DNA from: a virus
Lineage: Duplodnaviria > Caudoviricetes
Strand: one strand, 5' to 3'
DNA length: 54,593 nt
IMG/VR virus record: IMGVR_UViG_3300019360_000011
Location: 1 to 54,593 of that record
The notes beneath the pieces are model-generated. The model searched no databases, was not told where the DNA came from, and saw only the letters and a program-made list of their open reading frames with translations. Below, in pieces: positions 21,981-54,593 of the stretch; within the stretch, counting starts at the first letter, position 1; every line of letters begins with the position of its first letter. A program made the translations under genes and the position numbers.

Positions 21981-21994
21981 TTGACGAGGCCTCT

Positions 21995-37957: not shown

Positions 37958-38232
37958 GTCGCCCACTTATTCGCGCCGACAGGAAGCCGAATCGCCCCAG
38001 CTGAGAAGTCGTTCTTCTCTGTCCAAGTGTTAACGGTATCGGGCCGCGGAATTCCTGTCAACGCCGAGCCATCTAGCGAAGCGAAGTACGTCGAGTTGAT
38101 GGCCTGGATCTTTCCGGTCGCCGTGACGATGGCGAACGCCAGGACGTTCATGTTGTCCCGGATCTGCGCGTTGAAGTCCACCGCCTTCACCAGCTGGTCG
38201 GCAGTCCATGTGACCGGCGTTGTCCAAGCCAT
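37954..38232 (-). CDS. Minor tail protein
   Basis: MAWTTPVTW...NAQIRDNM. Confidence 0.7.
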   Translation of the reverse strand: MAWTTPVTWTADQLVKAVDFNAQIRDNMNVLAFAIVTATGKIQAINSTYFASLDGSALTGIPRPDTVNTWTEKNDFSAGAIRLPVGANKWAT

Positions 38233-40538: not shown

Positions 40539-43379
40539 TCAGCCGCTCATCGACAACGCTTCACGCATGGCGCGAGACATCATCCCGGGGAGGTTCAGCA
40601 TGAGCCCTTCCATCTGACCAGCACTAGAGTCACGGATCGCTCCGATCTGCGCCTCTGTAAAGACACCCTCCCTCCCGTGCAGCGTCGCGAGCGTGCCGCT
40701 ACCGAAGTCTCGGATACCACCCGAGCCGTGCTGGAAGCTGTCTCCATGGTCTCCCGGCCCACCACTGGGGGGCGTCGTCGTCGGTGCACCACCGCCTCCG
40801 GTGTTCACATTCACGTTGACGTTGACCTTAGCATTGTTGAACTCGTCGATCATCTTCTGAACGGCGTTTGGAACAGTTCCTCCGAACAGCTTGACCAGTT
40901 CGCCGGTCGCTGCTAGCATCGCTTCTTGGACCTCGACGAGCCGCTTCATCGGGTCTTCAAGACTAACAAACAGGCCGGCCGCTTCAGCGTCATCGACCAG
41001 CTTCTGCGTATGAGCGTCAAGCTCGACCCCGCTGTTTTCTGCGGCCATCTTCAGGTTAAAAAGATCCTGTGCAGTCAACGCGAGCGCTTGTCCGTAAGGC
41101 ACCCCAGCATCGAGCATCGTCTGGATTGCATTGTTCATGTCCATCGACATTCGAGTGGCGATGTCTTGCGTGAACAACCCAAACGAGGCCAGTGCTTGAG
41201 CAGTCTGTCCGATCCCGGTGACAAAATTCAACAGCTGCTCGTTAGCCGCAGCGAAGTTCGCGAGCTGAAGCAACGGCTCAGCCACAGTCGGGTCATCAAC
41301 CCGGCTCGGATCCAATGAAAGAGCGTCAAGAGCCGGTTTCATGGCAGCCAGCGCATCAACCGTCGACATGCCTGAGGCACGAAGCGCCTCAAACATCCCA
41401 GCAACGTAGATCCCTGCGTTCTGGATGCTAGTGAATTCGCTACTCAGCTCCATCAACGGCTGACCAAATTCATCCTCGATCTGGTTCCCAGCCTTGTCCA
41501 AGACTGGCTTCAGCATCGCGCCGAGCATCTTATTGATGCCCTCTGTCCCGACGTTGGCAAGCTCCTTCCGAGCGTCTTTCCAGTCATCAAACATGTCAGA
41601 GAACGACTTGACAGCTTCGTCCTGCTTCTTCTTGAGCTCAGCAGCCTTCTTCTTACTGTCACCAAAGAGCCCACCGAAGATCCCGACGATGCCGCCAATT
41701 GCGGCTCCGATCGCGGTTCCGTCAGGTCCAAAGAGAGAACCCACCGAAGCACCGGTCATGACGCCACCAGCAGCTCCCTGGACCGCAGCCCCTGCCGTGC
41801 CGCCGATCATCCCGCCGATCTGGCCGGCTGCTCCAGCGATAGCGCCAATCTTTCCGAGCGTTCCCATCTTCTCCCAGTCGCGGAACGACTCGGTAATGTT
41901 GCCAACAACGTCCAAGACGTCTCCAAAACCACCGCCGAGAACATCAGCAAGGAGTGCGATCCCTTGAAGACCAGTTGACCACCGTTCGGTCTCCATCCGC
42001 AGACGTTCCGCTTTCTGTGCCGCTGTCTCCACATACGGGACAACGCTCTTCGCCCCGTCTTTAGCCCCGGCCCAGGCGATCTTCATGTTCCAGACAGCAT
42101 TGGCCATGTCATCGGCAGAGACCTTAACCGTCCCAAACTCGTCTGAGAAACTGCCAACAGCCTTGAGAGCAGCGTCAAACATCCCCGGGAGCTGTTCTTT
42201 CATCTGAGACTCGAGGATGTTTGTTCCAAGCGCACGAGACGCAGCTTCTTCGATCTTGGAAAAAGCCTCTTCTGCTTGTCGTCTAATCTCAACGTACTGA
42301 AGAGCTATCCGCTTCTGCTGCTCTTCAAACTTCTTCGCAGCTGCCTCTGCTTCTGCCCACTCCTTCTTATGTTCCTTCGCTGCGATCTCTGAGTCTCGTC
42401 GAAACTTCTCAAACGGGTCGAAATCGCCAACGTCGGGCTCTGGGAACCCCTTTCCGAGGCCAAACGGGTCACCCTTGTAGTTCATGAAGTCTTCCATCTT
42501 GAGCTTCTCGAGAGTACGAGCGAGGTTCGAGAAGAACCCAAGAGAACTCATGTCGATCCCCGTGGCGAAGAGGTCCCAGAATTTTGAGAAGGCTCCTTGA
42601 TTCTCTTTGATGAAACCGGCCACCCGGCCGATAGCCTCGGCGATGTTGTTTATCGAGCTCGTAAAGGCGGGACTCTGAGCGACTGTCGCTGAGATCTGGT
42701 TATGAAACCCGTCCCACGCGATCCCGATACGATCTACAGAGTCGTCGAGCTCAGACAACGCCTTTACAGCGTTGTCCGATAACACCGCCCCAAGATTTTG
42801 CGCTCGCCCTGAAGCGCCATCTAGAGCCTCAATCAACGGAAGAAGATTCTTGGCCCCACCCCGCCCAAAGATGTCTGTCAACGCGGCGACGCGTTCGGTG
42901 TGGCTTCCGAGCTCCGTGATCTTATCGATCACCAGCTGAAACGCTGCTTCTTGACTGTCCATCGACGCGAGGAGTGCTGCGTCTAGTCCCCACTTCTGGA
43001 GAGCTTTAGAATTGGTCTCCAGGGCCTTCTCAAACTTCACGATCGCCGACTCGATCGCTCCAATGCCAACGCCCGACTCTTCTGCCGCGACCTTCAAAAC
43101 CTGGAGCTGTGTAACCGAGAAACTGGTCCGAGAGGCCATGTTCTCGATATGCTCTGCCGCTTTCGCACTCTCAGACACCATGGCAGCAAATCCTTGAACG
43201 GCATCAAGAGCAGCGCTACCAAGTTCGAGGAGACCTCCAGATCCCCCGGCGGCCATGCTCCCCATCGAGGTAAGCTGCGACCCGAGGTTCTCTGACTCCT
43301 GTGCGACCTGCTGGAGGACCTTTGATGCGTTGTCCTCAGCCTCAATCGTTCCTCGGATCGTCCCGGCGTCTACAGCCAT
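40539..43379 (-). CDS. Tape measure protein
   Basis: 946 aa, Ala/Gly-rich helical, after tail chaperones; C-terminal LHGREGV. Confidence 0.9.
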   Translation of the reverse strand: MAVDAGTIRGTIEAEDNASKVLQQVAQESENLGSQLTSMGSMAAGGSGGLLELGSAALDAVQGFAAMVSESAKAAEHIENMASRTSFSVTQLQVLKVAAEESGVGIGAIESAIVKFEKALETNSKALQKWGLDAALLASMDSQEAAFQLVIDKITELGSHTERVAALTDIFGRGGAKNLLPLIEALDGASGRAQNLGAVLSDNAVKALSELDDSVDRIGIAWDGFHNQISATVAQSPAFTSSINNIAEAIGRVAGFIKENQGAFSKFWDLFATGIDMSSLGFFSNLARTLEKLKMEDFMNYKGDPFGLGKGFPEPDVGDFDPFEKFRRDSEIAAKEHKKEWAEAEAAAKKFEEQQKRIALQYVEIRRQAEEAFSKIEEAASRALGTNILESQMKEQLPGMFDAALKAVGSFSDEFGTVKVSADDMANAVWNMKIAWAGAKDGAKSVVPYVETAAQKAERLRMETERWSTGLQGIALLADVLGGGFGDVLDVVGNITESFRDWEKMGTLGKIGAIAGAAGQIGGMIGGTAGAAVQGAAGGVMTGASVGSLFGPDGTAIGAAIGGIVGIFGGLFGDSKKKAAELKKKQDEAVKSFSDMFDDWKDARKELANVGTEGINKMLGAMLKPVLDKAGNQIEDEFGQPLMELSSEFTSIQNAGIYVAGMFEALRASGMSTVDALAAMKPALDALSLDPSRVDDPTVAEPLLQLANFAAANEQLLNFVTGIGQTAQALASFGLFTQDIATRMSMDMNNAIQTMLDAGVPYGQALALTAQDLFNLKMAAENSGVELDAHTQKLVDDAEAAGLFVSLEDPMKRLVEVQEAMLAATGELVKLFGGTVPNAVQKMIDEFNNAKVNVNVNVNTGGGGAPTTTPPSGGPGDHGDSFQHGSGGIRDFGSGTLATLHGREGVFTEAQIGAIRDSSAGQMEGLMLNLPGMMSRAMREALSMSG

Positions 43380-43382
43380 GTC

Positions 43383-43770
43383 CTACCTCTTCTTCCGCTG
43401 ACCGCGAGTGTCAGTGGATGAAAAAGATGCGGCCAAGCTCTTTCCGAGCGCCTTCATCTGCTGCCACGTCTTCCCAGGAGCACGTCCGACCTTCGTCGAG
43501 TCACCGAACTGGAGCAAGAAGTCCGACAGCTTGAACGGAGTGCGACGCTTCTTCCGGTCACGGTGGATATTCGCGAGAGCCGCGACGATCTGCGCGGATC
43601 GGATGTCGGCTCTCTCCTCGTCGAAAGGCTCCAGCTCAGAGAAGGCCTCCCACTCGAGGAACTGTCTCCACGTGATCTGCCCCAGCATCGCATCAACATT
43701 CACCCAGCCTAGCTTGGCAGCTAACCGATAGGCGAGACGGCGGGCGTCGCCTCGCTTGATGCGCTTTTTG
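43383..43770 (-). CDS. Tail assembly chaperone extension (gpGT-like, -1 frame)
   Basis: -1 frame reads KRIKRGDARRLAYRLAAKLGWVNVDAML...EWEAF..LEPF. Confidence 0.8.
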
Positions 43771-44125
43771 CATCGCTGACTTCGTCCTTCCCGAGACCGT
43801 TGAGCCGAAGCGCAGCCTTCTGGAGACGGAAGATCGTCTTGAGGCTCTTCTTCCTCAGCTCCGGGATGTCCTCCTCGAGCAGCATAGGGGTTCCGTCCTC
43901 GTTCACCGCGGACATCATGAGGATCCGGATCGCGGCGTTGTCGTCTCCCTTCTTCACTCCCTCGGAGAACTTGATCGCCTCAGCCGCCGTCAGCGTCCGA
44001 AGACGAACGACCCCGCCCCACTCCGGCACTTCCACGTCTTCGGTCTGCTGGTCGACGACCGAGAGAATCGCGTTCCGCGTGAGCAGCGCTCTCTTGGTCG
44101 GGCTCATCTCTTTCTTCTGTGCCAT
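43721..44125 (-). CDS. Tail assembly chaperone (gpG-like)
   Basis: V.VPEWGG.V.LR.LT, AVNEDG. Confidence 0.85.
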   Translation of the reverse strand: MAQKKEMSPTKRALLTRNAILSVVDQQTEDVEVPEWGGVVRLRTLTAAEAIKFSEGVKKGDDNAAIRILMMSAVNEDGTPMLLEEDIPELRKKSLKTIFRLQKAALRLNGLGKDEVSDAKSASSEATPAVSPIG

Positions 44126-44180
44126 TTGCTTACCCTCCTTGCTTGATGCTTGCAGTTGCGTGGGTACAAAACGAACCGAG

Positions 44181-44636
44181 TTACGGGGCCTCTTCGAAGA
44201 CGTGTCCGCCGGTGGGCCGGATCGTGACGTCCGCCGAGAGCCGATCGTCGACCGGAGCGTCGGGCTCGAAGTTGATCACGAAGCCGGAGAAGATCCACGT
44301 GCTGCCGTCCGGATAGGTGATCCGGTAGATGTCACGGCTGCCGTCGTACCACTTCTTCTGGAGACCGGTGTCACCGTCGTGCGAAGCATCCGTCGGCACG
44401 AAGTTCAGATTCATCTGAAGCTCGCCATGCCGCCGGATACCGACGATGTACCGATCGTCTTGCTGGTTGTGCGTCGTCGTCTCGATCGGATTGCGCATGA
44501 GACCGGGCGGTGTGAGATCCCCGAGCTCTGCGATGTCCACGAACGTGACGGATCCGCCCTGCGGTGCGGCATCCGGCCAGTTCGGGTCCGGGGAGACGGC
44601 GACGACCGTTCCCTGGGCCGAGATTCCGAAGGTCAT
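44181..44636 (-). CDS. Tail tube protein
   Basis: IETTTH, GIRRHGEL...NF, ITYPDG..W.FSGFV, V.IRPTG. Confidence 0.85.
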   Translation of the reverse strand: MTFGISAQGTVVAVSPDPNWPDAAPQGGSVTFVDIAELGDLTPPGLMRNPIETTTHNQQDDRYIVGIRRHGELQMNLNFVPTDASHDGDTGLQKKWYDGSRDIYRITYPDGSTWIFSGFVINFEPDAPVDDRLSADVTIRPTGGHVFEEAP

Positions 44637-44670
44637 GTCTTCATTCCTCCTTCTTTCCTCCTCACCGTCG

Positions 44671-45084
44671 TTATGGGACGACCTCTACGTTTCTGATCGA
44701 GAGCAGAGCCGTGTACGCCGCGTACGACATCGCTCTCCCGACCGCGCTATCGAGGGCACGAACCGCGATCTGGGCTGCTGGACGTCCGTACTTCGCTTGG
44801 AAAACCGGTGGATTGTGAACGCGCAGAGGCGCGGCACCTCCTGTCTCGATGACCGAGAGATAAGGACCGGGCCCATCGGGGATCACAGCCTGCGCCGTCG
44901 CGAAGATGTTCACGGCACGAGTGCCAACCCCAGCGTTCTCGAGGATCTTCACCAGCTCCTCGATGAACGTCCCGGAGACCTGCTTCATCGCGATGACGTT
45001 GAAGACAGTCTCTGACCGTCCAGCCTGATCCAGACCATTGTCGAACGGTTCCTGGATCGCGCCGATCTCGAGGTACCAGACCAT
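44671..45084 (-). CDS. Tail terminator-like protein, apparently circularly permuted
   Basis: Position before tube gene; GVGT..NIF, ETGG, P.AQIAVRA, QEPFD.GLD..GR...FN. Confidence 0.7.
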   Translation of the reverse strand: MVWYLEIGAIQEPFDNGLDQAGRSETVFNVIAMKQVSGTFIEELVKILENAGVGTRAVNIFATAQAVIPDGPGPYLSVIETGGAAPLRVHNPPVFQAKYGRPAAQIAVRALDSAVGRAMSYAAYTALLSIRNVEVVP

Positions 45085-45085
45085 G

Positions 45086-45511
45086 TCAGATGCGCTCCCA
45101 GTTCAACGTCTGCGCCCAGGTCCCGGCGAGGAGTGACGCCTCCTCTAGGAGAGGCCTCTCCAGATACTTCGGGCCGGTGCCTGCCTTCTTGAAGCGGACC
45201 GGATTCCCGGAAGCCTCCGCGATCTTCCAGCTCCGAGGACTCGAGGCCGAGAGATGCTCATGGATGGCGACAGCGTACGGGATCCCGGCTCCTCCGAAGA
45301 CCACCCGCTGCGCGTATCCCTTCTCTGACTTCTCGATCCGACCGCTGTCATGCAGGGTGCCCATGTCGTACGGGACGAGCTGCTGTGCCTTCTGCAGGAC
45401 TCGCTCACACGACTCTTCGACCGCATCGGGAATCTTCGCCTGTAGGCGGTCTCTGAACGCACGGATTCCTCCGGTCAGAGTGTCGTTCGTACGGATGTAG
45501 AACTTGATCAC
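45086..45511 (-). CDS. HK97 gp10-like tail-completion/neck protein
   Basis: AQQLVPYDMGTLHDSG, YAVAIHE, KYLERP. Confidence 0.8.
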   Translation of the reverse strand: MIKFYIRTNDTLTGGIRAFRDRLQAKIPDAVEESCERVLQKAQQLVPYDMGTLHDSGRIEKSEKGYAQRVVFGGAGIPYAVAIHEHLSASSPRSWKIAEASGNPVRFKKAGTGPKYLERPLLEEASLLAGTWAQTLNWERI

Positions 45512-46701
45512 GCGGTGACAACCTCCGGTGAGACTCCCAGCTTCTTAGGAGTGAGCACGCTCTTCACGACGTCAGCGAACCGTTCACCGATGTTCTTCCA
45601 GCGGTATCGCTCCTGGAGAACGAGCTCGAGCCCCGCCCCGGCCAGACGCTCACGCTCAGCCTTGTCGGAGTACAGGTGATTCAACGCTGCGACCGTCATC
45701 CCACGATCGGGGACGCCACCGATGACGTTGATGTCGTTCGGCGTGCACGAGACGCTCGAGCACTCGACGAGCCACGCAGCAGTCGCCGCCCACTCCCCGA
45801 GAGCCGACCAGTCCGGGACGATCTGCGGAACCCCGCACGCCATCCCCTCCATATGCGTCAGGCCCCAGCCTTCTCCCTGCGTCGTCGAGAGCATGACGTC
45901 GAACGCGCTGTACATCTCGGCGAGAGCGCGTTCTTCGACTCCAAGACCCATCTCCGGAGAAGAGATGATGAGCCGATTGGAAATCTTGAGGTACCGGCCA
46001 AGCTGCTCGAGGTCGTACCCAGCGTCACCAGTCGGACCGACGTGGAGGAAGAGATATGCATCCCGGACGTCGTGAGTCCGGACCCACTCCGCGAAGTAGA
46101 CCAGCGCAAGGTCCAAGCGCTTCCTCGGCTGGTTCCGACCGACGACACCGACGATGAACGCGTCTCTCAACGCGCCGAGCCGCAGTCGATCACGGACCTC
46201 TGATCGTCGATACGGCTTGTACACGTCGAGGTCGACGCCGAGCGGGATCACGTTCGCCTCTCCGGTGAACCCACCCTGCCGAGCTTGAAAGAGCCCGAAG
46301 TCCGTCCAGAAGACTGCGTTCGCGAGACCGTTCAGGCCAGCGCCTCGACAGTTGAGCCCGTCCACGGCCACCGACGCGACCGCAGGCGTGTTCCCGATCC
46401 TCTTCACGTACTCTGGGATGTTCCACGGATCGTTCGTCACGCACACGACGTCGGGTCTCAGCCGCTCGACGAGCTCTTTCGTCCGCTTCAACCCAAAGGC
46501 GTCACCGCCAGCATACCCGTAGCACGGGTACACCGGCACCTTCAACTTGTGCGGGTCTCCGAGGTAGTTCAGCGCGAGAACGTGCACGTCCCATCCCGCT
46601 GCGACGAGCCCGTCGACATAGGCGTGATTCAACCTCGCGAAGCCAGACGAGACGACTGCATCCCCGATCAACAGTACACGATGTTTGCCAGTGGTGTTCA
46701 C
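45508..46701 (-). CDS. GT-B (GT4-like) glycosyltransferase
   Basis: SGFAR, IPLGVD, GRNQPRK, GEGWGL..MEGMACGVP. Confidence 0.9.
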   Translation of the reverse strand: MNTTGKHRVLLIGDAVVSSGFARLNHAYVDGLVAAGWDVHVLALNYLGDPHKLKVPVYPCYGYAGGDAFGLKRTKELVERLRPDVVCVTNDPWNIPEYVKRIGNTPAVASVAVDGLNCRGAGLNGLANAVFWTDFGLFQARQGGFTGEANVIPLGVDLDVYKPYRRSEVRDRLRLGALRDAFIVGVVGRNQPRKRLDLALVYFAEWVRTHDVRDAYLFLHVGPTGDAGYDLEQLGRYLKISNRLIISSPEMGLGVEERALAEMYSAFDVMLSTTQGEGWGLTHMEGMACGVPQIVPDWSALGEWAATAAWLVECSSVSCTPNDINVIGGVPDRGMTVAALNHLYSDKAERERLAGAGLELVLQERYRWKNIGERFADVVKSVLTPKKLGVSPEVVTA

Positions 46702-47555
46702 GACAAGATCTCCTTCCAGAATCCTTCTGCGATCGTCTTCCAGTCAAATCGACGAAGAACGATCTCTCGCTCCGCCTCGGTGACTGCGTACCACGGGCCA
46801 CTCAAGATCGGCAAGAGCTGCTCCACGAGAGCTGATCCAGAGCACTCTTCGACGAAGACCGCGTGTCCTGCGTACCACTGCTTCATGTCAGAGCGGCTGA
46901 ACACGATCGGACGAGCTCCACACGCGAGTCCCTCCAAGACCGGGAGCTCAAAGCCTTCGACGTAACGCAGCCCAGAGACCCATCGCGCTCGTCCATACTC
47001 CTTAGCCAGAGATGCATCAGAGATCCCGAGCGCCGCGCGCCATCGCGGTGATGGACGCCACTTTGCTCCCGCAACAGCCGCTGGACCGAGATGAAAGACC
47101 TTCATGCGGAGATGATCAGCCGCTAGAGCGACCTCTTCGATCGCCTCAGCACCAGGACCGGTCAAGAACCCACTCGTCACGACCCCGTCACGGTCAGCAC
47201 CGTTTCCCTTGAAGACGTCTCCGTCAACCCCGAGCGGAGCGTGGTAGAAACGGCCGTGGACCGGGAGGTCTCCGTAGTAGCTCCAGACTAGACGAGCTCC
47301 CTGCCAGAAGCTCTGCCAGTCTTGGACTTCTCGCGCTGGGTTCGTCTTCCAGCAGTACTGGATCACCGCGTAGCTCTTCGTGCGCACCAGAGAGCGCGGG
47401 TACCCACCGATCACGTGGCAGATCTGCAGATCAGCGTCACCCGGATCATTCGCGATCGTGACAGTCGGAGGCGCGTAGCGCCTCAACGCGTCGCCAACCC
47501 GACGCATCGCTCGACTCACCGATGCACCAGGGAGCGGATCAACGTAGGCTCTCAC
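46698..47555 (-). CDS. GT-B glycosyltransferase
   Basis: PLGVD, EGFELPVLEGLACG, FDW. Confidence 0.85.
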   Translation of the reverse strand: MRAYVDPLPGASVSRAMRRVGDALRRYAPPTVTIANDPGDADLQICHVIGGYPRSLVRTKSYAVIQYCWKTNPAREVQDWQSFWQGARLVWSYYGDLPVHGRFYHAPLGVDGDVFKGNGADRDGVVTSGFLTGPGAEAIEEVALAADHLRMKVFHLGPAAVAGAKWRPSPRWRAALGISDASLAKEYGRARWVSGLRYVEGFELPVLEGLACGARPIVFSRSDMKQWYAGHAVFVEECSGSALVEQLLPILSGPWYAVTEAEREIVLRRFDWKTIAEGFWKEILS

Positions 47556-48250
47556 GCTGGGTGCCTCACCGCGAGCTGTGTCGCGACCGCGATGTTAAAC
47601 CCGACCATCCTGGCGTGTCGACACCAGCCGACCAGAGCCTCGTCTCGGCAGCCGCGCACCCGCTGGATGACCTCCCACCGCATCGCTAGACAGCTCCCGA
47701 CGCTGTCGAGCTCGAGATACGGGAGCCCGTTGATCGCGTGACAAAACGGTGGAAATGGTCCGAAGCGTCCTCCCTTGTATCGGAACGCCCAGACGTCGTA
47801 GAAATTCGCCCCGGCGAAGATCATCGGAGCGATGATGTCGATCCCATGCCGTCGCTCGGCCGCGATGTCGACCAGCGCACCGATAGTCATCGGGTCCCAG
47901 ATCAGGTCGCTCTCGACGTGTACGATCACGTCGTACTCCGGTCCGTCGGCGATCGCTCGAAAAGCGGTGTCGAGAACCTCTGACATCACCGCGAGTCTGA
48001 TCGGGTGCTCGACTGAACCGAGCTGCGGCTTCCCGGTGTTGGCGGTGACCAGCCGTGTCAGCGTTCCGAACTCGCGCGACATCTTGATGATCCTGTGCGG
48101 CGTGTCGTCACGTGAGTCGCCCTCAGTCGCCTGAGCATGGATCAGGTGGCCCGAACCGACATGCCTCTGCAGCATGCTGATCTGCGAGAACCACCTTCGA
48201 ATCTGTTGATCACCGGTGTCTCGGAAAGCAGAGGAGATGAGAATCTTCAC
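47552..48250 (-). CDS. GT-A fold glycosyltransferase (GT2/Anp1-like)
   Basis: EGDSRDDT, VESD (DxD-like), FYDVWAFR, LDSVGSC. Confidence 0.75.
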   Translation of the reverse strand: MKILISSAFRDTGDQQIRRWFSQISMLQRHVGSGHLIHAQATEGDSRDDTPHRIIKMSREFGTLTRLVTANTGKPQLGSVEHPIRLAVMSEVLDTAFRAIADGPEYDVIVHVESDLIWDPMTIGALVDIAAERRHGIDIIAPMIFAGANFYDVWAFRYKGGRFGPFPPFCHAINGLPYLELDSVGSCLAMRWEVIQRVRGCRDEALVGWCRHARMVGFNIAVATQLAVRHPA

Positions 48251-48732
48251 GAGACCTCACCGATCTTCCTGGCCGGGACACCGGCCCAGATCTCACGAGC
48301 GGGGACATCCTTCGTCACGACGGCACCAGCTCCGATCCGAGCACGCTCTCCGACATGGACCCCAGGCATCACGATCGCCCCGGCGAACAGGATCGCGTTC
48401 TTACGGATAACGACTCTCTTCTTCTCGACCAGCTGCTGGTCTTGAGGCGCAGAAGCGCTACAGCTCTCTCCCTCAGGCTTGTTTGAGCCGCTGATGATCT
48501 TCGCCCCGCTCGCCATCGCTGCCCCATCCTCAATGATGGTCTCTCCTCCTCCGATGTTCACGTGACAGAAGCTGGCGATGTGGACGTTTCGCCCGATCGT
48601 GACCCCTTCGCCGCCCTCGATCTTCACGAAGGAGTCGACACGCGATCCGTCTCCGACCTTGACGACAGACGGACGAGTCACGACGATCGGCTGGTACCAA
48701 TCCACCTGCTCTCCCAGCTCGCCGATGATCAC
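48247..48732 (-). CDS. Hexapeptide-repeat acyltransferase
   Basis: IGRNVHI, IGAGAVVTKDVP, GVPARKI. Confidence 0.9.
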   Translation of the reverse strand: MIIGELGEQVDWYQPIVVTRPSVVKVGDGSRVDSFVKIEGGEGVTIGRNVHIASFCHVNIGGGETIIEDGAAMASGAKIISGSNKPEGESCSASAPQDQQLVEKKRVVIRKNAILFAGAIVMPGVHVGERARIGAGAVVTKDVPAREIWAGVPARKIGEVS

Positions 48733-49775
48733 GCCGCGACCTCCGTGAGCACGCTACTGAGCAGCGCGCAGACGCTCTCAACGTCCTTCGTGCCAATCTC
48801 GGCATGGAGCGGCAGGAGCAGTCCGTCTCGCGCGAGCTCCTCTGCGACGGGCATCCGCTCCCCGCCGCGATAGATCGGCTGCGTGTTCAACGCCGGGAAG
48901 ACCGGACGCGTCTCGATCTCGCCCTGACTGAAGAGAGCGTCAGCGACTCTCTGGCGGTCTGAGACCAAGATCGGCATCACCCATTCGACAGCATAAGCGC
49001 TCCGCCACTGGCTGCGTACGTCGAGGAGTCGAGAGTCATACTCAAACCGAACAGCTCGTCGAACGCGTAGCATGTCGTGCAGGCGCTCCAGCTGCGCGAG
49101 CCCGATAGCTGCCTGGAGATCGGTCATCCGATAGTTGAAGCCGAGCACGTCGTGAACGTATCGGCGTGCCGACTGACCCTGACCACGCAGCTTCTTCACG
49201 CGGTCGATCACCGACTCGTCATTCGAGAGTACGGCACCACCCTCTCCGCACGTGATGATCTTGTTTCCGTAGAACGACAAGACGGTCGCGTCCCCGTACA
49301 TCGGGACTCCGTGTGCCTCACACGCGTCTTGCAGCACCCAGGCCCGACTTGGAAATGCCTGACGTCGCCCTGCGGCCTGCGTCCCGTAGAGGTCGACCAG
49401 TATGACCCCAGCCGCGCGGTGCTGCTCAGCAGCCTCTAACGCAGCCTCCACCGGCAGCGTCCACGTCTTCGGATCGACGTCCACGAAGATCGGCGTCGCT
49501 CCACAGTACCTCACCGCGTTGGCCGTCGCGATGTACGAGCACGCAGGAACGATCACTCTCTGCCCAGGCTTCAGCCCGAGCGCGAGCAGTGCGAGGTGCA
49601 GCGCAGCGGTTCCTGAGGCCACCGTCACGGCCGCATAACCGAGCTGCTCGTTGCCGAGTCGCTTCTCAAACCTCTCGACGAACTCTCCCATCGACAGACG
49701 GGTGCTCCGAAGAACCTCAAGGAGATAACGCTTCTCGTTCCCTCGAAAGGACGGCTGTGCGATGTTAATCCTCAC
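48729..49775 (-). CDS. DegT/DnrJ/EryC1/StrS PLP aminotransferase (perosamine synthase-like)
   Basis: SGTAALHLAL, DACEAHG, SFYGNKIITCGEGG (PLP Lys), GFNYRM...AAIG. Confidence 0.92.
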   Translation of the reverse strand: MRINIAQPSFRGNEKRYLLEVLRSTRLSMGEFVERFEKRLGNEQLGYAAVTVASGTAALHLALLALGLKPGQRVIVPACSYIATANAVRYCGATPIFVDVDPKTWTLPVEAALEAAEQHRAAGVILVDLYGTQAAGRRQAFPSRAWVLQDACEAHGVPMYGDATVLSFYGNKIITCGEGGAVLSNDESVIDRVKKLRGQGQSARRYVHDVLGFNYRMTDLQAAIGLAQLERLHDMLRVRRAVRFEYDSRLLDVRSQWRSAYAVEWVMPILVSDRQRVADALFSQGEIETRPVFPALNTQPIYRGGERMPVAEELARDGLLLPLHAEIGTKDVESVCALLSSVLTEVAA

Positions 49776-50110
49776 GCGAAGTTTACCTGCTCGTGGTGCG
49801 CCCCATTCTCGTCCTGAAACTGCTCGACACTGATCACCGGAGGAAGCGGTGGCTTAAAGCGAACCGGAAGCGTGATCCGATGGTAGATCGTCGCTCCCGG
49901 CGTCCCAGCCAGAATGACCCGCAACGAAGAGACCCGCTCTTTTCCGGTCGAATCACGAACGACACGATTTCCGATCATGCAGTGTGCCCGAACGACGACC
50001 GTCGCTCCATAGGCCGTCGGATTACCCCTCATGTCAAAGCCTGTGGGAGCTTCCAGCGAGACGGTGTCAGAGAACAGGTCAATGAGCGCCGACACAATCT
50101 GCGCAGGCAC
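49772..50110 (-). CDS. Head closure protein
   Basis: Size, position, VRD..GKE.VS and DENG.HH motifs. Confidence 0.65.
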   Translation of the reverse strand: MPAQIVSALIDLFSDTVSLEAPTGFDMRGNPTAYGATVVVRAHCMIGNRVVRDSTGKERVSSLRVILAGTPGATIYHRITLPVRFKPPLPPVISVEQFQDENGAHHEQVNFA

Positions 50111-50111
50111 G

Positions 50112-50486
50112 TCAGAGCATCCTCAGCACATGGCTGTTCCCGCCAGCCTTCAGCAGCAACGCACAGCCACGTTCCTGCAAAGACTTCATGTACGCACGAT
50201 ACGCAGAGTCAGCCGAATCGTTGCTACCGTAGTCAATGCTCAGGTTCCCGACTGTCTTCGAGGTCACGGTCCCCGAGCCTCCGTCTTTATTCAAGATCAC
50301 GCCCGCGGCCATCGCGGCCGCGAGGTACTTGGTCCAGTTGCCGCTCCCGTTGATGCTTACCTGTTCGGCGATCAGTGCGTCGATCTCCTCGTCTTGAAGC
50401 ACAGCCGACGCAACGACACGGTCGCCCGACAGGAACCGGACCCAGTCCCTGTCGGTAGGAAGCGTCGGATCGTACGTGGCTGACAC
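50112..50486 (-). CDS. Head-tail adaptor
   Basis: D.VRFL.GD...LQDEEI...VG.LSI.Y. Confidence 0.75.
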   Translation of the reverse strand: MSATYDPTLPTDRDWVRFLSGDRVVASAVLQDEEIDALIAEQVSINGSGNWTKYLAAAMAAGVILNKDGGSGTVTSKTVGNLSIDYGSNDSADSAYRAYMKSLQERGCALLLKAGGNSHVLRML

Positions 50487-50497
50487 GTCTTACCTCC

Positions 50498-51532
50498 TTA
50501 CGGAACCGCGATGATCTCGACCACGCCGCTGCGACCGTCCGAGTCGGACCGGATCAGCGGGACATGGATCGAGAACGCCTTGAACTCGACACGGAACCCG
50601 CCCTGGATGTCCCACTGCACCGTCTGCAGCGGCTCACCCTCGACGAGCACGACCACGTCGGGCGTCGCCTGGACGACGATCACGCTGCCGCTCGGCAGCT
50701 GATCGGCGACGCGGATGCCGGCGACACGGTCGACCTCGAGGACCCGCTGCCGGATCGTCTTGTCGCTGTTCGCCTTGAAGTCCGACTCCAGCTTGGTGGA
50801 CGCGTCGCTCGGGACGTAGATCCAGTACGGGCCGGAGTTCATCCGATCCGCCTCGAGCGCCGTGATCGCGGCCAGAACGTCCGCGAGGATGTTCTCCCCC
50901 GTCACGGCCGGGACGTTCCACGGGTTCGTGACGAAGTTCGTGATGTTGCGGTCCGGGTGCGTGGTGTAGCCGTAGATCGGGAGCGATCCGAACATCGGCC
51001 CACCCTGGAACAGCATCTTCTCGACCTGCTCGGCCACGAGTCGGCCCGCCGTCCGGACCTGCGTGGTGTCGAGCGACTCGCCCCGCTCACGGGACGCCAT
51101 GAGCGTGCGCAGGTTGATGCCGAAGTCCTTGTGGGTGATCGGCAGAGGCAGCGAGTTCAAGTCAAACTCCTGCCGATCGTCTTCGGTCCGCGACATGCCG
51201 TCCAGAGACGTCTGGGCGGGCTCCATGTCGGTGATCTTCTCGTACTGGAAGACCGTCTTGCCCATCCCGTTGGCGACGGGCCTCGTGAGCCCGGCGGCCA
51301 TCAGATCCGCGACACCCCGCAGTCGGATCGTCCCCTCCTGCACGAGCGCCTCGTCGAAGTGGATCCACTCGTCCTTGCGGAGAGTGTCCGCGGTGCGCAG
51401 CTCCTTCGGCGTCATCGGGCGTCCCTCTTGCATCGCGCGCAAGAGACGCTCGCCGGCCCACCTGCCGGAGCTCCCGTTCCAGAACTTCGCCCCGCCATCG
51501 ACGTTCGCGGGTGCGTTCCTCGTTCTCGCCAT
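50498..51532 (-). CDS. Major capsid protein (HK97 fold, encapsulin/linocin-like branch)
   Basis: ATG 51532 with AAGGAAGGAG RBS; TLRKDEW..FD, PLPITHKDF, YGYTTHP; position. Confidence 0.85.
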   Translation of the reverse strand: MARTRNAPANVDGGAKFWNGSSGRWAGERLLRAMQEGRPMTPKELRTADTLRKDEWIHFDEALVQEGTIRLRGVADLMAAGLTRPVANGMGKTVFQYEKITDMEPAQTSLDGMSRTEDDRQEFDLNSLPLPITHKDFGINLRTLMASRERGESLDTTQVRTAGRLVAEQVEKMLFQGGPMFGSLPIYGYTTHPDRNITNFVTNPWNVPAVTGENILADVLAAITALEADRMNSGPYWIYVPSDASTKLESDFKANSDKTIRQRVLEVDRVAGIRVADQLPSGSVIVVQATPDVVVLVEGEPLQTVQWDIQGGFRVEFKAFSIHVPLIRSDSDGRSGVVEIIAVP

Positions 51533-51569
51533 CTTCGTTTCTCCTTCCTTACGGTGGCCCATGGGCCGG

Positions 51570-51989
51570 TTAGACGATCTCGACGCGGATGCGAGCGTCG
51601 GCCGAAGCGTTCACCGCCTCGAGAGCCCGCGCCATGCGGACCGTCGCGGTGACGCCCGTCGCGGTGAGCAGACCCGTGGTGTTGCTGGTCAGATACGCAC
51701 CCTTCGCGACGTTCTGGCCGGAAGCGAGCCACGCGTAGACCCGCTGACCGGGGTGAAACGCACCGACCTTGACCTTGTCTCCGACCGCGTACGCCACGTC
51801 GATGTCGTTCCCGAGCTCGTCGCGCTCCAGCGCGAAGTTCGGGGCGACGTTCGCCGCGTCGTCCGTGTTCCTCTGGACGCCGGTCGACGTGAGCTCGAGA
51901 AGATGCCCGGGCGTGATGGCCGCGAGCGCCGACTCCTCCTCGTTCACGACGGGCGGCAAGCCCAGCAGTCCGATCGTTCTCCTCGCCAT
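51570..51989 (-). CDS. Capsid decoration/cement protein
   Basis: AITPGHLL, G..L...G.L, ARALEAV; directly upstream of MCP. Confidence 0.75.
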   Translation of the reverse strand: MARRTIGLLGLPPVVNEEESALAAITPGHLLELTSTGVQRNTDDAANVAPNFALERDELGNDIDVAYAVGDKVKVGAFHPGQRVYAWLASGQNVAKGAYLTSNTTGLLTATGVTATVRMARALEAVNASADARIRVEIV

Positions 51990-52032
51990 CTCTTGATCTC
52001 CTTCCTTGATCTCTTGGAAAAACGCCTGTGAA

Positions 52033-54084
52033 CTACGACGCCTTCTCGATCCCTCGAGCGATCCGGATGGACCTCGACAGCGAGGGAGCGGCCGGGATCT
52101 CCTCCTCGGTGACGGACGACGCCGCGCGCGGGACGCCCGCGCCCGAGTAGTACTTCTTCGGAACGGACGCGGTGATCAGCTTGGTGATCTTCTCGAGGGA
52201 CTCGAGCGGCATGGCCTTGAGATCCGCCTCGCTGTACGCCTCCTGCTTGACGCCCGCGCACGCGGCGACCAGCTCCGCGTGACGAGCCGTATCCCTGGCC
52301 TTCTCGCGATCCAGGACGAGCTTCACGTCCGGGAACATCGACAGGAACTTCTGCCGCTGCTCTTCGGGGGTCGGCTCCGGGACCGGCTCCGGCTCCGTCG
52401 CCAGCGCCGTGAGACGCTCCTCGGACAGCTGCTCCAGGATCGGAGCGTCCGCCGCCGCGAAGCGGGACTTCTTCTGGGCCAGAATCTTCTGGACCAGCTC
52501 CTTCTTCGTCATGTCGTTCTCCTTCCCTGCGGGCGTTCCTTCCGTCTTGCCGCCACACCCGCAGTTGCCTGCGGCGGCACGCTCCTTCTTCCCTTCCACC
52601 ATCGCACGGGCCTCTTCCTCCGTGTCGTGGCACATCTCCTTCCCGTCGGCCGTCTTGTGGCAGTAGCGGCTACCCTTCTCGTACACGGCGCTCTTCTCAC
52701 CCTTCTTCTTGAAGGGCGGAGCCGCACCCGGGAAGGCCGCTGCGTTGACCGGCTCGAACCGGGTGATCTGCTGGACCTCCTCGCCACCCTCGACGTCGAG
52801 CTCCACGCCACCGGCATCCGTCATCCGGTAGTCGCAGCGGTGCAGCATCAACGCGCCCTCCGGAGCCGAAGCGTAGATCACCTTGTGCTCCTCGGGATAG
52901 TACGAGTCGACCCCGATGAAGCCCGGGACGGTGGCCATCAGCGCCTGGTGCAGTGCCGTGCGCAGCTCATCGGCCGTCTGGCCATAGTCCTCGAGGACCT
53001 TCGGGTCACTCGGGACGAAGCTCTCGAGGAGAGCCTTGAACTTCTCGAGGATCGTCATCGACTGTCCCTCCAGATTCTTGAAACCTTTCTGTGCGAGAGA
53101 GGACGTGCTCTCTTGATACGGCGTGCGCTGACCGGTGTCGATCGTGTAGATCAAATCGCGACCAGGCGTCTTCTCGATCTTCGTGATGCGCCCCGATCGG
53201 ACCTGGCTGTCTCCTGATGGCTTCCACTGGATGCGAGATCCGCGCTGCAACTTTAGCGCGCCGTCGTATCGCATATCGTAGGAAGCACCACCGTCTCTGG
53301 AGAAGTCACCCTTCTCGTCATCCCCCCCGCCTGTTCCTGGCGCGCTCCCACCGATCTGTCCCGGACGTCCAGCGTGACCGAAGTTCCCGCTTCCCTTCCC
53401 ACCCGCCGCGCGCAGTGCCCCGCAGCCCATCTCGATGCTGCACGCTCCGACCACTCCCTCCTCGAGGAAGGCGAGGTGGTCGGGGACGATGTCCTGCCAG
53501 ACCGCCTCGTAGCGCAGCCCGCCGTCCGCGCCGGGCTTCTGGTCTAGCGTCACGAACACTCCGACGCTGACCTCGGTCTGCTCCCCACGCTGGAGCGCGT
53601 CGAGAATCGACCCCGCCCCTGCGGAACGAGCGCGCTCGGGGTCGACATACGCGTCCATCTTCAGCTTTCCGCCGTCCACGCGCGCGTTGAAGATCGTCCC
53701 GATCCTGTGCTCCTCGAGCACGGTCGGCTCGTTTGCGCTGATCTGTCGGCCGTCTCGAGACGGGTGCCCGAACATGATCGGACGACCGTTCCAACCCTGT
53801 GGAGCCTGCTCGAGATCCTCGAGTCGGACCAGCTCCGGCTGGAGGGAGTTGTGCGCGTGGATCACTCCCGGCACGAGCGCGATCACCGGGACCACGATGT
53901 GCTCTCGCCCCTCGAAGATCGCGGTCCGCAGCAGGCCGCTCTGCAGGGCATGGAGCTCGCGGTGCTTGCTGGCCTCGATCGCTGCGAGCTGCCTCTTTGC
54001 GTCGGCCTCCGTCGCGTGACAGGCGATGCGCCGCTGGCCGCTCTTGTCGAAGACGCAGTAGCGTGAACCGACCTTCTTGATCAT
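52033..54084 (-). CDS. Prohead protease (DUF2213-like)/scaffold fusion
   Basis: WNGRP...HP, EVSVG, PDHLAFL...GACS...GCG; charged C-terminus; start at ATG 54084 with AGGAG RBS. Confidence 0.8.
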   Translation of the reverse strand: MIKKVGSRYCVFDKSGQRRIACHATEADAKRQLAAIEASKHRELHALQSGLLRTAIFEGREHIVVPVIALVPGVIHAHNSLQPELVRLEDLEQAPQGWNGRPIMFGHPSRDGRQISANEPTVLEEHRIGTIFNARVDGGKLKMDAYVDPERARSAGAGSILDALQRGEQTEVSVGVFVTLDQKPGADGGLRYEAVWQDIVPDHLAFLEEGVVGACSIEMGCGALRAAGGKGSGNFGHAGRPGQIGGSAPGTGGGDDEKGDFSRDGGASYDMRYDGALKLQRGSRIQWKPSGDSQVRSGRITKIEKTPGRDLIYTIDTGQRTPYQESTSSLAQKGFKNLEGQSMTILEKFKALLESFVPSDPKVLEDYGQTADELRTALHQALMATVPGFIGVDSYYPEEHKVIYASAPEGALMLHRCDYRMTDAGGVELDVEGGEEVQQITRFEPVNAAAFPGAAPPFKKKGEKSAVYEKGSRYCHKTADGKEMCHDTEEEARAMVEGKKERAAAGNCGCGGKTEGTPAGKENDMTKKELVQKILAQKKSRFAAADAPILEQLSEERLTALATEPEPVPEPTPEEQRQKFLSMFPDVKLVLDREKARDTARHAELVAACAGVKQEAYSEADLKAMPLESLEKITKLITASVPKKYYSGAGVPRAASSVTEEEIPAAPSLSRSIRIARGIEKAS

Positions 54085-54097
54085 GTCTGCCTCTCTC

Positions 54098-54593
54098 CTA
54101 TGTGAGACGATAGCCCAGGGCCGGGATCGGTACGGCGGTGATCGCCGCACCTCCCGATCCAAACGGTGAAGGAAGCGCGGCGAACGCGAAGGCGCGGGAG
54201 ATCCCCACCTGTGGGGCGGCTCCGAAGGTAGAAGGGACCCCGTGGATCGGCCACATGCCAGACAGCGGCAGGCACCGGAGCGTGGCCGCAGCGTCGGAGA
54301 GGTAGACGAGCCAGTAGAGCTGTCCAGGCGTGAGCGCCTGGGACAGCGCGAACGTCTTCACACCCGTCGTGCCGGTGCTGATGCTCCCCGAGTCCGAGAG
54401 CAGCGTAAACGGGTAGATGTCTCCGTCGTTGCCGGTGCTGGAACCACGATTGTTGTACAGGCCGATGCGACCGTTCCCGGCGAGCAGCGTGGTCACCTCG
54501 AACGCGATCTGGTCGATGGTCCCGCCCTTGAACGGGGCCACGAACGGGAAGGCGCGCAGCGTGCCCGCCGATGGAGCCCCGGTCACGAGCGCG
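54098..54593 (-). CDS. 3' part of the junction-spanning fibre/spike protein
   Basis: In frame with 1..605; beta-sandwich with RIGLY, LTPGQLYWL. Confidence 0.8.
   Translation of the reverse strand, partial: ALVTGAPSAGTLRAFPFVAPFKGGTIDQIAFEVTTLLAGNGRIGLYNNRGSSTGNDGDIYPFTLLSDSGSISTGTTGVKTFALSQALTPGQLYWLVYLSDAAATLRCLPLSGMWPIHGVPSTFGAAPQVGISRAFAFAALPSPFGSGGAAITAVPIPALGYRLT
54471..54593. repeat. Terminal direct repeat, right copy
   Basis: Identical to 1-123. Confidence 0.95.

Follow-up and report, generated by a model that had tools for sequence, protein, structure and literature searches.

What does a phage modify when it encodes an amino-sugar pathway and three glycosyltransferases among its head and tail genes? 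The question is raised by a viral record of 54.6 kb, analysed here over its whole length (the window), which looks complete and has direct terminal repeats. Five enzyme genes occupy positions 45508-49775 of its minus strand (Table 1), where a preliminary description of the DNA had placed them, and they are flanked by a head-tail connector gene and an HK97 gp10-like gene, the latter recognised through a weak Pfam match (19.7 bits against a cut-off of 21.4). All six junctions from the connector through to the gp10-like gene are 4-bp GTGA overlaps, most of them preceded by an SD-like GGAGG or GAGG; at one end the TGA of the connector overlaps the GTG of the aminotransferase gene, and at the other the GTG start of the gp10-like gene overlaps the stop codon of the last glycosyltransferase gene. 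On the evidence of the sequence, all five are read from the message of the structural genes, with translation coupled through GTGA restarts. No terminator-like site was found inside the gene string that holds the cassette, and the GC content of the cassette (0.61-0.62) is the same as that of the neighbouring genes. Given zero intergenic space and the lack of a terminator-like site in the string, it is very likely that the cassette is co-expressed with the structural genes. The preliminary description had proposed just such late expression, on the grounds of overlap chaining and a position between connector and gp10-like genes, and both of these features are present.

Table 1. Positions in the window of the cassette genes, their flanks and candidate acceptor proteins, with the basis of each assignment
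Feature	Position	Strand	Basis
DegT-family PLP aminotransferase, GDP-perosamine-synthase-like	48729..49775	-	348 aa; PF01041 and 3bn1 match
Hexapeptide (left-handed beta-helix) sugar N-acyltransferase	48247..48732	-	161 aa; PF00132
Predicted GT-A glycosyltransferase, phage-specific CAP59/Anp1-like family	47552..48250	-	232 aa; AlphaFold model and Foldseek
GTx, predicted compact GT4-like GT-B glycosyltransferase	46698..47555	-	285 aa; model, Foldseek, EX7E
GT4 glycosyltransferase, core gene of the system	45508..46701	-	397 aa; Pfam GT1/GT4 families, EX7E
Head-tail connector (head-completion), upstream flank	49772..50110	-	phrog_3881, E 5.3e-7
HK97 gp10-like tail-completion gene, downstream flank	45086..45511	-	PF04883, E 1.7e-3, below cut-off
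Tail tube protein, leading candidate acceptor	44181..44636	-	Phage_TTP_12, E 7.4e-13; phrog_158, E 7.8e-21
Major capsid protein, alternative candidate acceptor	50498-51562	-	DUF6260, phrog_771/264
Head decoration protein, alternative candidate acceptor	51570-51989	-	phrog_766

The first two enzymes form an amino-sugar pair. The 348-aa protein is a member of the PF01041 sugar aminotransferase family (DegT_DnrJ_EryC1; E 2.8e-80, 270.7 bits against a cut-off of 19.8, residues 12-339), and its best solved relative, as expected from the perosamine-synthase likeness noted earlier, is the Caulobacter perosamine synthetase 3bn1, matched end to end (E 4.6e-64, residues 2-343) with 219.7 bits against 168 for the second-best solved match. 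The PLP lysine is intact (K172, in a GNKIIT motif) and lies in FYGNKIITCGEGG, which aligns to FFGNKIITTGEGG of 3bn1. The NCBIfam model for LegC scores 231.9, under its cut-off of 420, and that for PseC is likewise under its cut-off, while homologues carry the JGI name perosamine synthetase, an automatic annotation. The 161-aa protein is a hexapeptide (LbH) acyltransferase (Hexapep, PF00132; E 8.9e-14, 50.9 bits against a cut-off of 27) whose nearest relatives are sugar N-acyltransferases: the closest solved structures are the 3vbi group, QdtC and WlbB-type enzymes (E 1e-13 to 3e-9), and the NeuD/PglB/VioB subfamily model gives E 3.9e-15, below its cut-off. GDP as the nucleotide carrier, and the identity of the acyl group, we infer from the best matches only. 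That no sugar dehydratase is encoded, as had been stated, agrees with a search for SDR dehydratases (PF16363, PF01370) in six frames of the whole record, which was empty. In this respect the cassette is unlike Mimivirus, which also encodes a dehydratase.

The remaining three enzymes are glycosyltransferases, all of them soluble (maximum KD19 no higher than 1.17; no transmembrane-like segment). The 232-aa protein has weak Pfam matches only (CAP59, 6.5e-4), and it is its AlphaFold model (pLDDT 94, pTM 0.91) that predicts a glycosyltransferase with a single Rossmann-like GT-A fold, matched by Foldseek to LH3, ColGalT1 and Mnn9 (E 8e-11, probability 1.00, TM 0.63-0.69) and further to MGS and WrtF. 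An acidic DxD-type motif, E113-S-D115, is invariant in 16/16 homologues, as is E43-G-D45. The family appears to be viral: viral contigs hold 101 relatives and the atlas clusters that contain it are 97-100% viral, the pattern used to search 185,579 species genomes recovered none, and tblastn against 50,697 GenBank phage records gave no match. For GTx, Pfam by itself gives a sub-threshold match (16.6 bits), and a model of pLDDT 95 points to a compact two-Rossmann GT-B protein of GT4 type, with Foldseek matches to methylmannose-polysaccharide mannosyltransferase, BshA, MshA and PglA. Its EX7E motif (E200..E208) is well kept among 50 sequences, E200 being at least 90% conserved and E208 invariant, consistent with a retaining GT4 enzyme. 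The GTx family comprises 477 representatives at E<=1e-3, some of them fused forms of about 700 aa, and has no tblastn match in the same 50,697 phage records. The 397-aa protein is a retaining GT-B glycosyltransferase of family GT4, as judged from Glyco_trans_1_4 (PF13692; E 3.6e-9, 37.4 bits against 27), Glycos_transf_1 (PF00534; E 6.7e-9, 35.9 bits against 26.4) and an EX7E motif (E277..E285) in which both glutamates are invariant in 46 sequences, along with R189 and K194. A profile of 46 sequences matches chlorovirus B736L (3oy2) over its full length at E 1.3e-31, the runner-up standing at 1e-10. Profile matches, models and catalytic motifs agree on the five enzymes and fold classes, one GT-A and two GT-B, that had been recognised from the translations.

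Taken together, the chances are about even that the cassette serves the late, cytoplasmic glycosylation of phage particle proteins, most probably tail-module proteins such as the tail tube, with a sugar of the N-acyl-perosamine type. The host would supply both GDP-mannose and, via its 4,6-dehydratase, GDP-4-keto-6-deoxymannose; the Per-like aminotransferase would form GDP-perosamine, which the small beta-helix acyltransferase would N-acylate, probably with an acetyl group. GT4, universal in the system and kin to the GDP-mannose-binding B736L, would begin the glycan on a structural protein, and GTx and the metal-dependent GT-A would lengthen it and add the amino sugar as a cap.

The synteny survey that the preliminary description had suggested shows how far this arrangement extends. 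When relatives were sampled through GT-A (80/101 loci kept), the full five-gene set recurred in window order in 19/80 loci, and GT-A, GTx and GT4 in that order in 28/80, with tail genes downstream in 25 of these 28. Distant phages whose capsids belong to unrelated families have GT-A in a structural module in 10/11 cases; one distant GT-A, in L074, sits among nucleotide-metabolism genes. Sampling through the tail-tube protein gave GT4 in all of the relatives that could be assessed (50/50), and in the capsid sampling this tail-tube type occurs in 32/34 GT4-positive against 0/16 GT4-negative loci, counts that ignore kinship and include many near-duplicate loci. The association persists even with the tail-tube gene at a distance of 5-8 kb, ahead of the capsid genes, and in some relatives (L130, L061) GT4 stands immediately before the tail-tube gene. 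The gp10-like gene beside GT4 is conserved in relatives, and the capsid type is found both with and without GT4. In relatives that lack the cassette its flanking genes adjoin directly; the first capsid search gave cassette genes in 0/6 loci, with a gap of 1.6 kb from MCP to gp10, and StAshley, a Brevundimonas phage and the nearest cultured relative by capsid, has no cassette. The idea of an inserted cassette needs correcting, in that this is no private insertion: GT4 is present in every assessable relative sampled through the tail tube. Methyl-, formyl- and sulfotransferases vary the cassette content between close relatives, and the late slot also takes unrelated genes, namely a muramidase (L017), an M15 peptidase (L011) and a GIY-YIG gene (L037). 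A large uncultured clade has GT4 as its core gene, with GT-A, GTx and the two amino-sugar genes added in modular fashion.

These comparative data, that is, GT-A in structural modules, the co-occurrence of GT4 with the tail tube and the separation from hydroxymethyl-pyrimidine genes, favour the particle as the target, as first proposed; the lack of an acceptor motif and of Che8-type homology does not. Because neither Ser/Thr-rich tails nor any other acceptor signature was found on the capsid, decoration and tail-tube proteins, virion glycosylation is a process that we infer. Lysis genes share the slot in L017 and L011, so the neck position is evidence of late expression and not of a virion target, and the association of GT4 with the tail tube may be plain linkage inside the tail module.

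It is unlikely, though the best of the alternatives, that the enzymes instead remodel a glycoconjugate of the host envelope (O-antigen, capsule or S-layer anchor) late in infection through host lipid-linked intermediates, whereby the phage would hide or remove the receptor that it uses itself, sparing its progeny from loss on debris or keeping superinfecting phages out. A Per-like DegT enzyme with an N-acyltransferase is classical Caulobacter O-antigen chemistry, in which Per (3bn1) and PerB (4ea7) carry out the same two steps, amination then N-acylation, and Per is the best solved relative here; the phage acyltransferase, in contrast, is a minimal beta-helix of 161 aa that matches PerB (6e-5) less well than the enzymes named above. 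The host of StAshley, cellular GTx relatives that lie together with GT2 enzymes and methyltransferases in polysaccharide-type clusters, and a Cytobacillus GTx directly after ManC and GDP-mannose dehydratase all point the same way. Among GT4 and GT-A enzymes, those that use lipid-linked sugars are often soluble peripheral proteins, and glycan diversification in relatives would suit any surface glycan. Against this, the window, unlike the Caulobacter system, holds no lipid-linked assembly machinery: no initiating phosphoglycosyl transferase, flippase or integrase was found among its scanned ORFs, and no polymerase, ligase or membrane component of the Gtr type. Seroconversion, where known, is a trait of lysogens, and no integrase or lysogeny module was seen. 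A Gtr-like seroconversion module, which like the cassette consists of phage-encoded sugar transferases, was considered and rejected, the three glycosyltransferases being free of transmembrane-like segments and the 68 scanned window ORFs of integrase and Gtr families. Moreover, in unrelated phages the genes of the system lie among those for morphogenesis and are conserved together with them (10/11 and 50/50, as above), and the GT-A family was missing from the species genomes searched with the pattern.

Less probable again is a cytoplasmic target outside the particle, whether a host or non-structural phage protein or a small molecule, with the neck slot merely permissive. The unrelated late genes admitted to the slot, the structural proteins without acceptor signature and the fact that B736L, the closest solved GT4 relative, has no known acceptor would all suit this reading, but a permissive slot cannot explain why GT-A and GT4 stand at different spots within structural modules of phages with unrelated capsids, nor why one tail-tube type is always accompanied by GT4.

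The preliminary description had named host LPS and DNA as other possible targets, and of these LPS keeps the low standing given above to the envelope, while DNA is largely excluded. Glycosylation of the phage's own hypermodified DNA is very improbable. In its favour, genes for a thymidylate-synthase-like enzyme, a 5-hmdU DNA kinase and an amino acid:DNA transferase lie at 19-24 kb of the window, the distant GT-A of L074 lies among nucleotide-metabolism genes, and phage glycosyltransferases that act on hydroxymethyl-pyrimidine DNA, such as those of the T-even phages, are well known. Against it, the cassette lies 21 kb from the DNA-modification genes within the morphogenesis string, the kinase (PF18723) occurs in only 2/9 cassette-bearing relatives searched and also in one that lacks the cassette, and the GT4 profile has no match to T4 DNA glucosyltransferases at E<=1e-3. 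A PF00303 thymidylate-synthase-family gene occurs in 0/5 cassette-bearing records, of which two have terminal repeats and the other three are rated at least 93% complete by CheckV. The cassette is uncoupled from the 5-hmdU genes and, unlike the T-even enzymes, occurs in genomes without a pyrimidine hydroxymethylase.

How would glycosylation of the particle compare with known systems? Virion glycosylation in the mycobacteriophages Che8, Corndog and Myrna was reportedly described by Freeman et al. in 2023. Precedent for phage-encoded enzymes that glycosylate capsid and tail tube is provided by these phages, in which glycosyltransferases encoded in tandem, in many cases accompanied by an O-methyltransferase, act on the subunits of capsid and tail tube (PMC12619734, PMC11600133, PMC12363180). 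Like the cassette, these systems place several phage-encoded enzymes in a row, and the sets differ between phage clusters. Homology of the Che8 type was rejected, since no sequence relation was detectable: tblastn of GT4, GT-A and GTx against the 50,697 phage records returned no mycobacteriophage. The cassette also differs in making its own amino sugar, in its place inside the neck/tail-completion region, in its carriers (high-GC uncultured siphophages, the nearest cultured capsid relative growing on Brevundimonas) and in the absence of C-terminal Ser/Thr acceptor tails.

A further parallel is Mimivirus, which puts an N-acetyl-4-amino-4,6-dideoxyhexose on its particle through a viosamine pathway (L136 aminotransferase; L142 N-acetyltransferase fused to a glycosyltransferase) that supplies its fibril glycans (PMC9614988). 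Virus-encoded DegT-type 4-aminotransferase, beta-helix N-acyltransferase (a trimeric N-acetyltransferase in Mimivirus) and linked glycosyltransferases are common to both, and the Mimivirus sugar is O-methylated, as is suggested for relatives within the cassette clade. Mimivirus, however, is a giant eukaryotic virus with a UDP-linked, gluco-configured sugar, whereas the cassette DegT best matches a manno-configured GDP-perosamine enzyme. The GT4 relative B736L of chlorovirus NY-2A, with A546L of PBCV-1 (3oy2/3oy7), is a soluble, metal-independent GT-B that binds GDP-mannose best; the NY-2A capsid glycans contain no mannose (PMC9614988), which counts against the reading preferred here. Unlike the cassette GT4, B736L comes from a eukaryotic algal virus and has no known link to tail genes.

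For the clade as a whole, it is possible, though somewhat short of an even chance, that these uncultured siphophages glycosylate their tail tube, and perhaps other particle proteins, by a modular, serotype-like system with lineage-specific add-ons and, as starter, a universal B736L-like GT4 shared with chloroviruses. GTx, the phage-only GT-A, methyl-, formyl- and sulfotransferases and an N-acyl perosamine-type branch that draws on the GDP-mannose pathway of the host would diversify the glycan. Since the versions found in relatives are shorter or tailored in other ways (O-methyl, N-formyl, sulfo), particles across the clade would bear variable glycans. If true, it would extend virion glycan systems beyond actinobacteriophages for the first time and provide the first case of a phage particle glycan based on an amino sugar that the phage itself makes.

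The window, a viral record that looks whole at 54,593 bases and is placed in the class with direct terminal repeats, carries the same 123 bases at both ends and has nearly all of its genes on the minus strand. Its late gene string opens the table below in transcription order, followed by the other features discussed here (L and G numbers denote loci and genomes of relatives sampled via GT-A, capsid, tail tube or GTx). DNA polymerase A and a primase-polymerase are also encoded, and no member of the integrase family was found among the 68 ORFs scanned. The preliminary description had placed five chained sugar genes in the neck operon, and this observation is real: families, folds, catalytic motifs and the GTGA chain were all recovered. 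All six junctions from the connector to the gp10-like gene are GTGA overlaps, mostly with GGAGG-like sites before them. A promoter and terminator scan of positions 38000-54593 gave a site count not above that of shuffled sequence, with no terminator-like site inside the gene string. In the 709-aa protein a DUF2213/head-maturation-protease-like match covers residues ~77-250 only, the remaining ~450 residues have no assignment, and the protein may be a protease-scaffold fusion.

Coordinates of features in the window and in sampled relatives
Feature	Coordinates	Strand	Remarks
Terminase	4464-5798		First in late string
Portal	3016-4464		After terminase
709-aa protease-containing protein	52033-54162	minus	Reached across record ends
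Decoration protein	51570-51989
Major capsid protein	50498-51562
phrog_1732 protein	50112-50486
Head-tail connector	49772-50110		Directly before five cassette genes
DegT aminotransferase	48729-49775		PF01041, E 2.8e-80
Hexapeptide protein, 161 aa	48247-48732
gp10-like gene	45086-45511		Directly after five cassette genes
Tail terminator	44671-45084
Tail tube	44181-44636
Chaperone and T proteins			Between tail tube and tape measure
Tape measure	40539-43379
SAM-methyltransferase-like gene	36549-37106	minus	Among distal tail and lysis genes
Thymidine-hypermodification set	19212-24087 (19-24 kb)	minus	Adjoins DNA polymerase A
Thymidylate-synthase-like gene	19212-20210	minus
5-hmdU DNA kinase	20599-21426	minus
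P-loop kinase-like gene	within 19212-24087	minus
Dual-specificity phosphatase	22628-23074	minus
Amino acid:DNA transferase	23071-24087	minus
Cellular GTx cluster	L098:5730-11558		Cytobacillus massiliigabonensis chromosome; DUF4214-bearing GT4 nearby
Sugar-type formyltransferase	L027:7658-8803		Inside cassette
Sugar-type formyltransferase	L043:8531-9259		Inside cassette
Sulfotransferase	L075:6609-7256		PF03567, E 5e-14; with two methyltransferases
N-acetylmuramidase (lysis-type)	L017:11538-12131		E 2.4e-54; between GTx and GT4
M15 peptidase (lysis-type)	L011:4989-5528		E 8.6e-14; between GTx and GT4
GT4 + GT-A fusion	L058:8609-10630
CAP59-like + GT4 fusion, 986 aa	L075:9038-11998
GT4 + GT2 fusion, 656 aa	L020:12320-14290
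Relocated or tandem tail-tube genes	L121:8557-9390; L138:8527-8868; L140:4337-4729; L150:8486-9348		Also in L114, L137, L146, L149

The aminotransferase (DegT) aligns end to end with the Caulobacter perosamine synthetase 3bn1 (E 4.6e-64), which scores ~50 bits above the next solved aminotransferase, and its PLP lysine is present (K172). The hexapeptide protein has solved sugar N-acyltransferases as its nearest relatives and is closer to these than to solved O-acetyltransferases of small molecules; the solved entries 3vbi and 3mqg are presumably AntD and WlbB. Pfam is clear for the 397-aa glycosyltransferase (GT4) only, and the other two were folded from alignments of their homologues. The 232-aa protein (GT-A) has a confident GT-A fold (model pLDDT 94), an invariant E113-S-D115 and best structural matches to LH3, ColGalT1, Mnn9, mannosylglycerate synthase and the fucosyltransferase WrtF. 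The 285-aa protein (GTx) is a compact GT-B of the GT4 type (model pLDDT 95), with structural matches that include methylmannose-polysaccharide mannosyltransferase, BshA, MshA, PglA and PimA, and it shares the EX7E motif with the 397-aa GT4. The absence of a sugar dehydratase, also claimed previously, is upheld, as no SDR dehydratase or epimerase occurs in any frame of the whole record.

The predicted sugar donors would derive from GDP-mannose. Among its solved relatives DegT comes closest to GDP-perosamine synthase, and perosamine synthetase is the automatic JGI name for its homologues. The GT4 profile matches B736L of chlorovirus NY-2A over its full length (E 1.3e-31; the top cellular enzyme reaches 1e-10), and B736L bound GDP-mannose best among the nucleotides tested (PMC9614988). 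In structure, GTx comes nearest to a GDP-mannose-dependent mannosyltransferase, and GT-A is similar to GDP-sugar enzymes, those of the Mnn9/CAP59/Anp1 type included. On the Cytobacillus massiliigabonensis chromosome the order is phosphomannose isomerase, GT4, GDP-mannose pyrophosphorylase, GDP-mannose 4,6-dehydratase, a GTx homologue and Methyltransf_24, a cluster that could make a methylated 6-deoxyhexose glycan for the surface or spore of a member of the Bacillota. The GDP-mannose link is in each case a best-match inference, and a LegC-family NCBIfam model scores DegT as high as Per does, although below its cut-off; both the carrier nucleotide and the substituent at C2 are therefore provisional.

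Viral contigs queried with GTx or GT-A as single sequences yielded no relatives; these were reached by alignments alone. Across 50,697 deposited phage genomes tblastn matched neither protein, blastn of positions 44000-51600 against GenBank phages gave no match, and the one GT-A alignment pattern run on 185,579 species genomes brought up no relative. The GTx alignment reached 10 cellular or MAG contigs, in which GTx stands without the other cassette genes; its family comprises 477 representatives when clustered at 50%, some of them fusions of ~700 aa, and atlas clusters around GT-A are 97-100% viral, including a fused GT-A/GT4 form of 633 aa. GT4 matches seven phage records at 23-34% identity, among them cyanophages S-CBS4 and S-EIVl, Tetrasphaera TJE1, Microcystis Mae-JY09 and Pontimonas phiPsal1. 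The S-CBS4 homologue is likewise placed among structural genes, accompanied by a methyltransferase and a further transferase; the neighbouring gp015, a ‘galactosyl transferase’, has no relationship to the GT-A of the window (BLASTP E 24). The literature search gave no paper combining S-CBS4 with glycosylation.

Particle glycans are reported to have been demonstrated so far for a handful of mycobacteriophages only, where they blunt antibody recognition (PMC12619734, PMC11600133, PMC12363180). The mycobacteriophage system is described in these papers as glycosylating capsid and tail tube, and a literature search, mainly of titles and abstracts, gave no case of phage capsid glycosylation outside this group. 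The cassette differs from the mycobacteriophage systems in enzyme families, amino-sugar branch, location and host range. Other likenesses are the mimivirus viosamine pathway, with an aminotransferase, a beta-helix N-acetyltransferase fused to a glycosyltransferase and a methylated sugar on the fibrils, and the chloroviruses, which glycosylate their capsid and whose B736L provides the sequence link to the phage GT4 (PMC9614988). A perosamine-type or neck-operon system in phages is not described in the mainly non-subscription literature searched, largely by titles and abstracts.

The view of the cassette as an insertion holds by comparison with some cassette-free relatives. Six loci were found by the capsid protein alone, and none carries any of the five genes (E<=1e-3). 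In L006 only 1.6 kb with three small ORFs separates the capsid gene from the gp10-like gene, and Brevundimonas phage StAshley, the nearest cultured phage by capsid (36% identity), lacks the cassette and has five small genes at the equivalent site. A private or recent gain did not stand up: recent horizontal insertion was rejected because the GC content of the cassette is like that of its neighbours and the cassette is clade-wide.

The GT-A alignment found 101 relatives among viral contigs, 80 of which were kept; counts from this sample are of contigs, not independent events, and include near-duplicates (e.g., L017/L018 and L027-L029). At least one of DegT, acyltransferase, GTx and GT4 lies within the locus in 74 of the 80, GT-A, GTx and GT4 follow the window's order in 28, and all five genes do so in 19. 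Recognisable tail genes lie downstream in 25 of the 28, with recognisable head genes upstream as well in 12; no tail genes were recognised in the available sequence of L027-L029 (tblastn E<=1e-4), of which L028 runs ~8 kb past GT4.

Sampling through the tail-tube alignment is blind to the cassette. It gave 143 relatives (80 kept), and 50 loci were assessable, having a gp10/terminator anchor preceded by at least 2 kb of sequence. Ahead of this anchor, 16 have GT4 only, 10 GTx and GT4, eight all five genes, five GT-A, GTx and GT4, five DegT and GT4, and two, themselves truncated upstream, the acyltransferase with all three glycosyltransferases; the four with none (L130-L133) have GT4 between the terminator and tail-tube genes. 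GT4 is present in all 50 loci and is therefore a core gene of the clade, to which the other four are accretions, and the window is the fullest form. Seventeen apparent GT4-negatives, counted upstream of the tail-tube gene, were an artefact of relocation of that gene and of early contig ends. In many relatives the tail-tube gene precedes the decoration and capsid genes, or two tandem paralogues stand directly before the sugar genes, an unusual mobility inside a conserved structural operon. The tail-tube proteins of the clade also vary by a loop of 10-17 residues after residue 15 (A3 columns ~15-35), present in the window, L013, L022, L031 and L032 and missing in others, with no obvious tracking of the full cassette.

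Relatives' cassettes hold further genes, among which no dehydratase was found. Methyltransf_24 methyltransferases occur in L016, L024, L025 and L076, and the formyltransferases and sulfotransferase of the table suggest that some lineages would have N-formylated or sulfated glycans. Because relatives' sugar cassettes include methyltransferases, the window's own SAM-methyltransferase-like gene, a weak match (Methyltransf_25, E 4e-4), might likewise tailor the glycan. A GT2 domain is added in L020 and a second GT-A copy in L016 and L027. The insertion of lysis-type genes in L017 and L011 marks the neck slot as a hotspot for late accessory genes, and an unrelated late gene, a GIY-YIG nuclease, lies inside the L037 cassette. 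Fused multi-domain transferases are called in L058, L075 and L020, where adjacent genes may have been merged by ORF calling in high-GC DNA; they agree with the ~700-aa GTx-family forms and the 633-aa viral atlas cluster.

The gene neighbourhood bears on the target. Among 11 distant loci, with 23-34% identity to the window's GT-A and different capsid families, 10 have GT-A no more than 5 kb from same-strand genes of the head, connector or tail; a GT4 usually accompanies it, and it is often found between capsid and tail-completion genes or beside the major tail gene. The exception is the low-GC contig L074, whose GT-A has genes for ribonucleotide reductase, thymidylate synthase and recombinase around it. 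The capsid-alignment search (232 relatives, 80 kept) supplied 50 loci with the junction covered. Of 34 with GT4, 32 have this tail-tube type (at least 35% identity) and two gave no hit or 29% identity, as did all 16 without GT4. Since the capsid type (48-67% identity) is found in both groups alike, GT4 travels with the tail module, not the head, and the association is kept where head genes separate the tail-tube gene from GT4. The tail module is the likelier target, although the association, from counts without phylogenetic correction, could reflect linkage alone; the terminator and gp10 genes of GT4-negative relatives are more divergent too.

Comparison of cassette-bearing with cassette-lacking relatives found no Ser/Thr-rich termini or acceptor tags on the capsid, decoration, tail-tube, connector, gp10-like or terminator proteins. 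A complex prediction for GT4 (46-row alignment) and tail tube (19-row alignment), run without controls, gave a score of 0.02 that speaks neither for nor against binding. Virion glycosylation, proposed in the preliminary description, stays the best available reading, of a system more general than reported, and is unproven. We give roughly even chances to glycosylation of particle proteins by the cassette; against it, the same slot also hosts lysis genes. Remodelling of the host envelope we consider rather unlikely; the three glycosyltransferases have no transmembrane-like segments, and no lipid-linked assembly genes are present with the cassette. Some other cytoplasmic target seems quite improbable. 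DNA is unlikely as the target, to the point of deserving very little credence: the 5-hmdU kinase family occurs in two of nine cassette-bearing relatives searched (G001 and G003) and also in G005, which lacks the cassette, a thymidylate-synthase-family gene is absent from five cassette-bearing records (two with terminal repeats, three rated at least 93% complete) in a search positive for 10 of 14 control genomes, and the GT4 profile does not reach the T4 DNA glucosyltransferases at E<=1e-3. Without a hydroxymethyl-pyrimidine we know of no acceptor base.

If particle proteins are indeed the target, environmental phages would widely share a modular capacity for glycosylating their particles; one viral collection holds 101 relatives by GT-A, 143 by tail tube and 232 by capsid. 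Phage and chlorovirus glycosyltransferases would be linked, and glycoengineering would gain new soluble enzymes for glycosylating proteins, along with a compact pathway in which two enzymes yield an N-acyl amino sugar. The diversity of the glycans would then resemble that of bacterial O-antigens and would matter for the stability and adhesion of virions, for receptor recognition and for escape from recognition by host or grazer.
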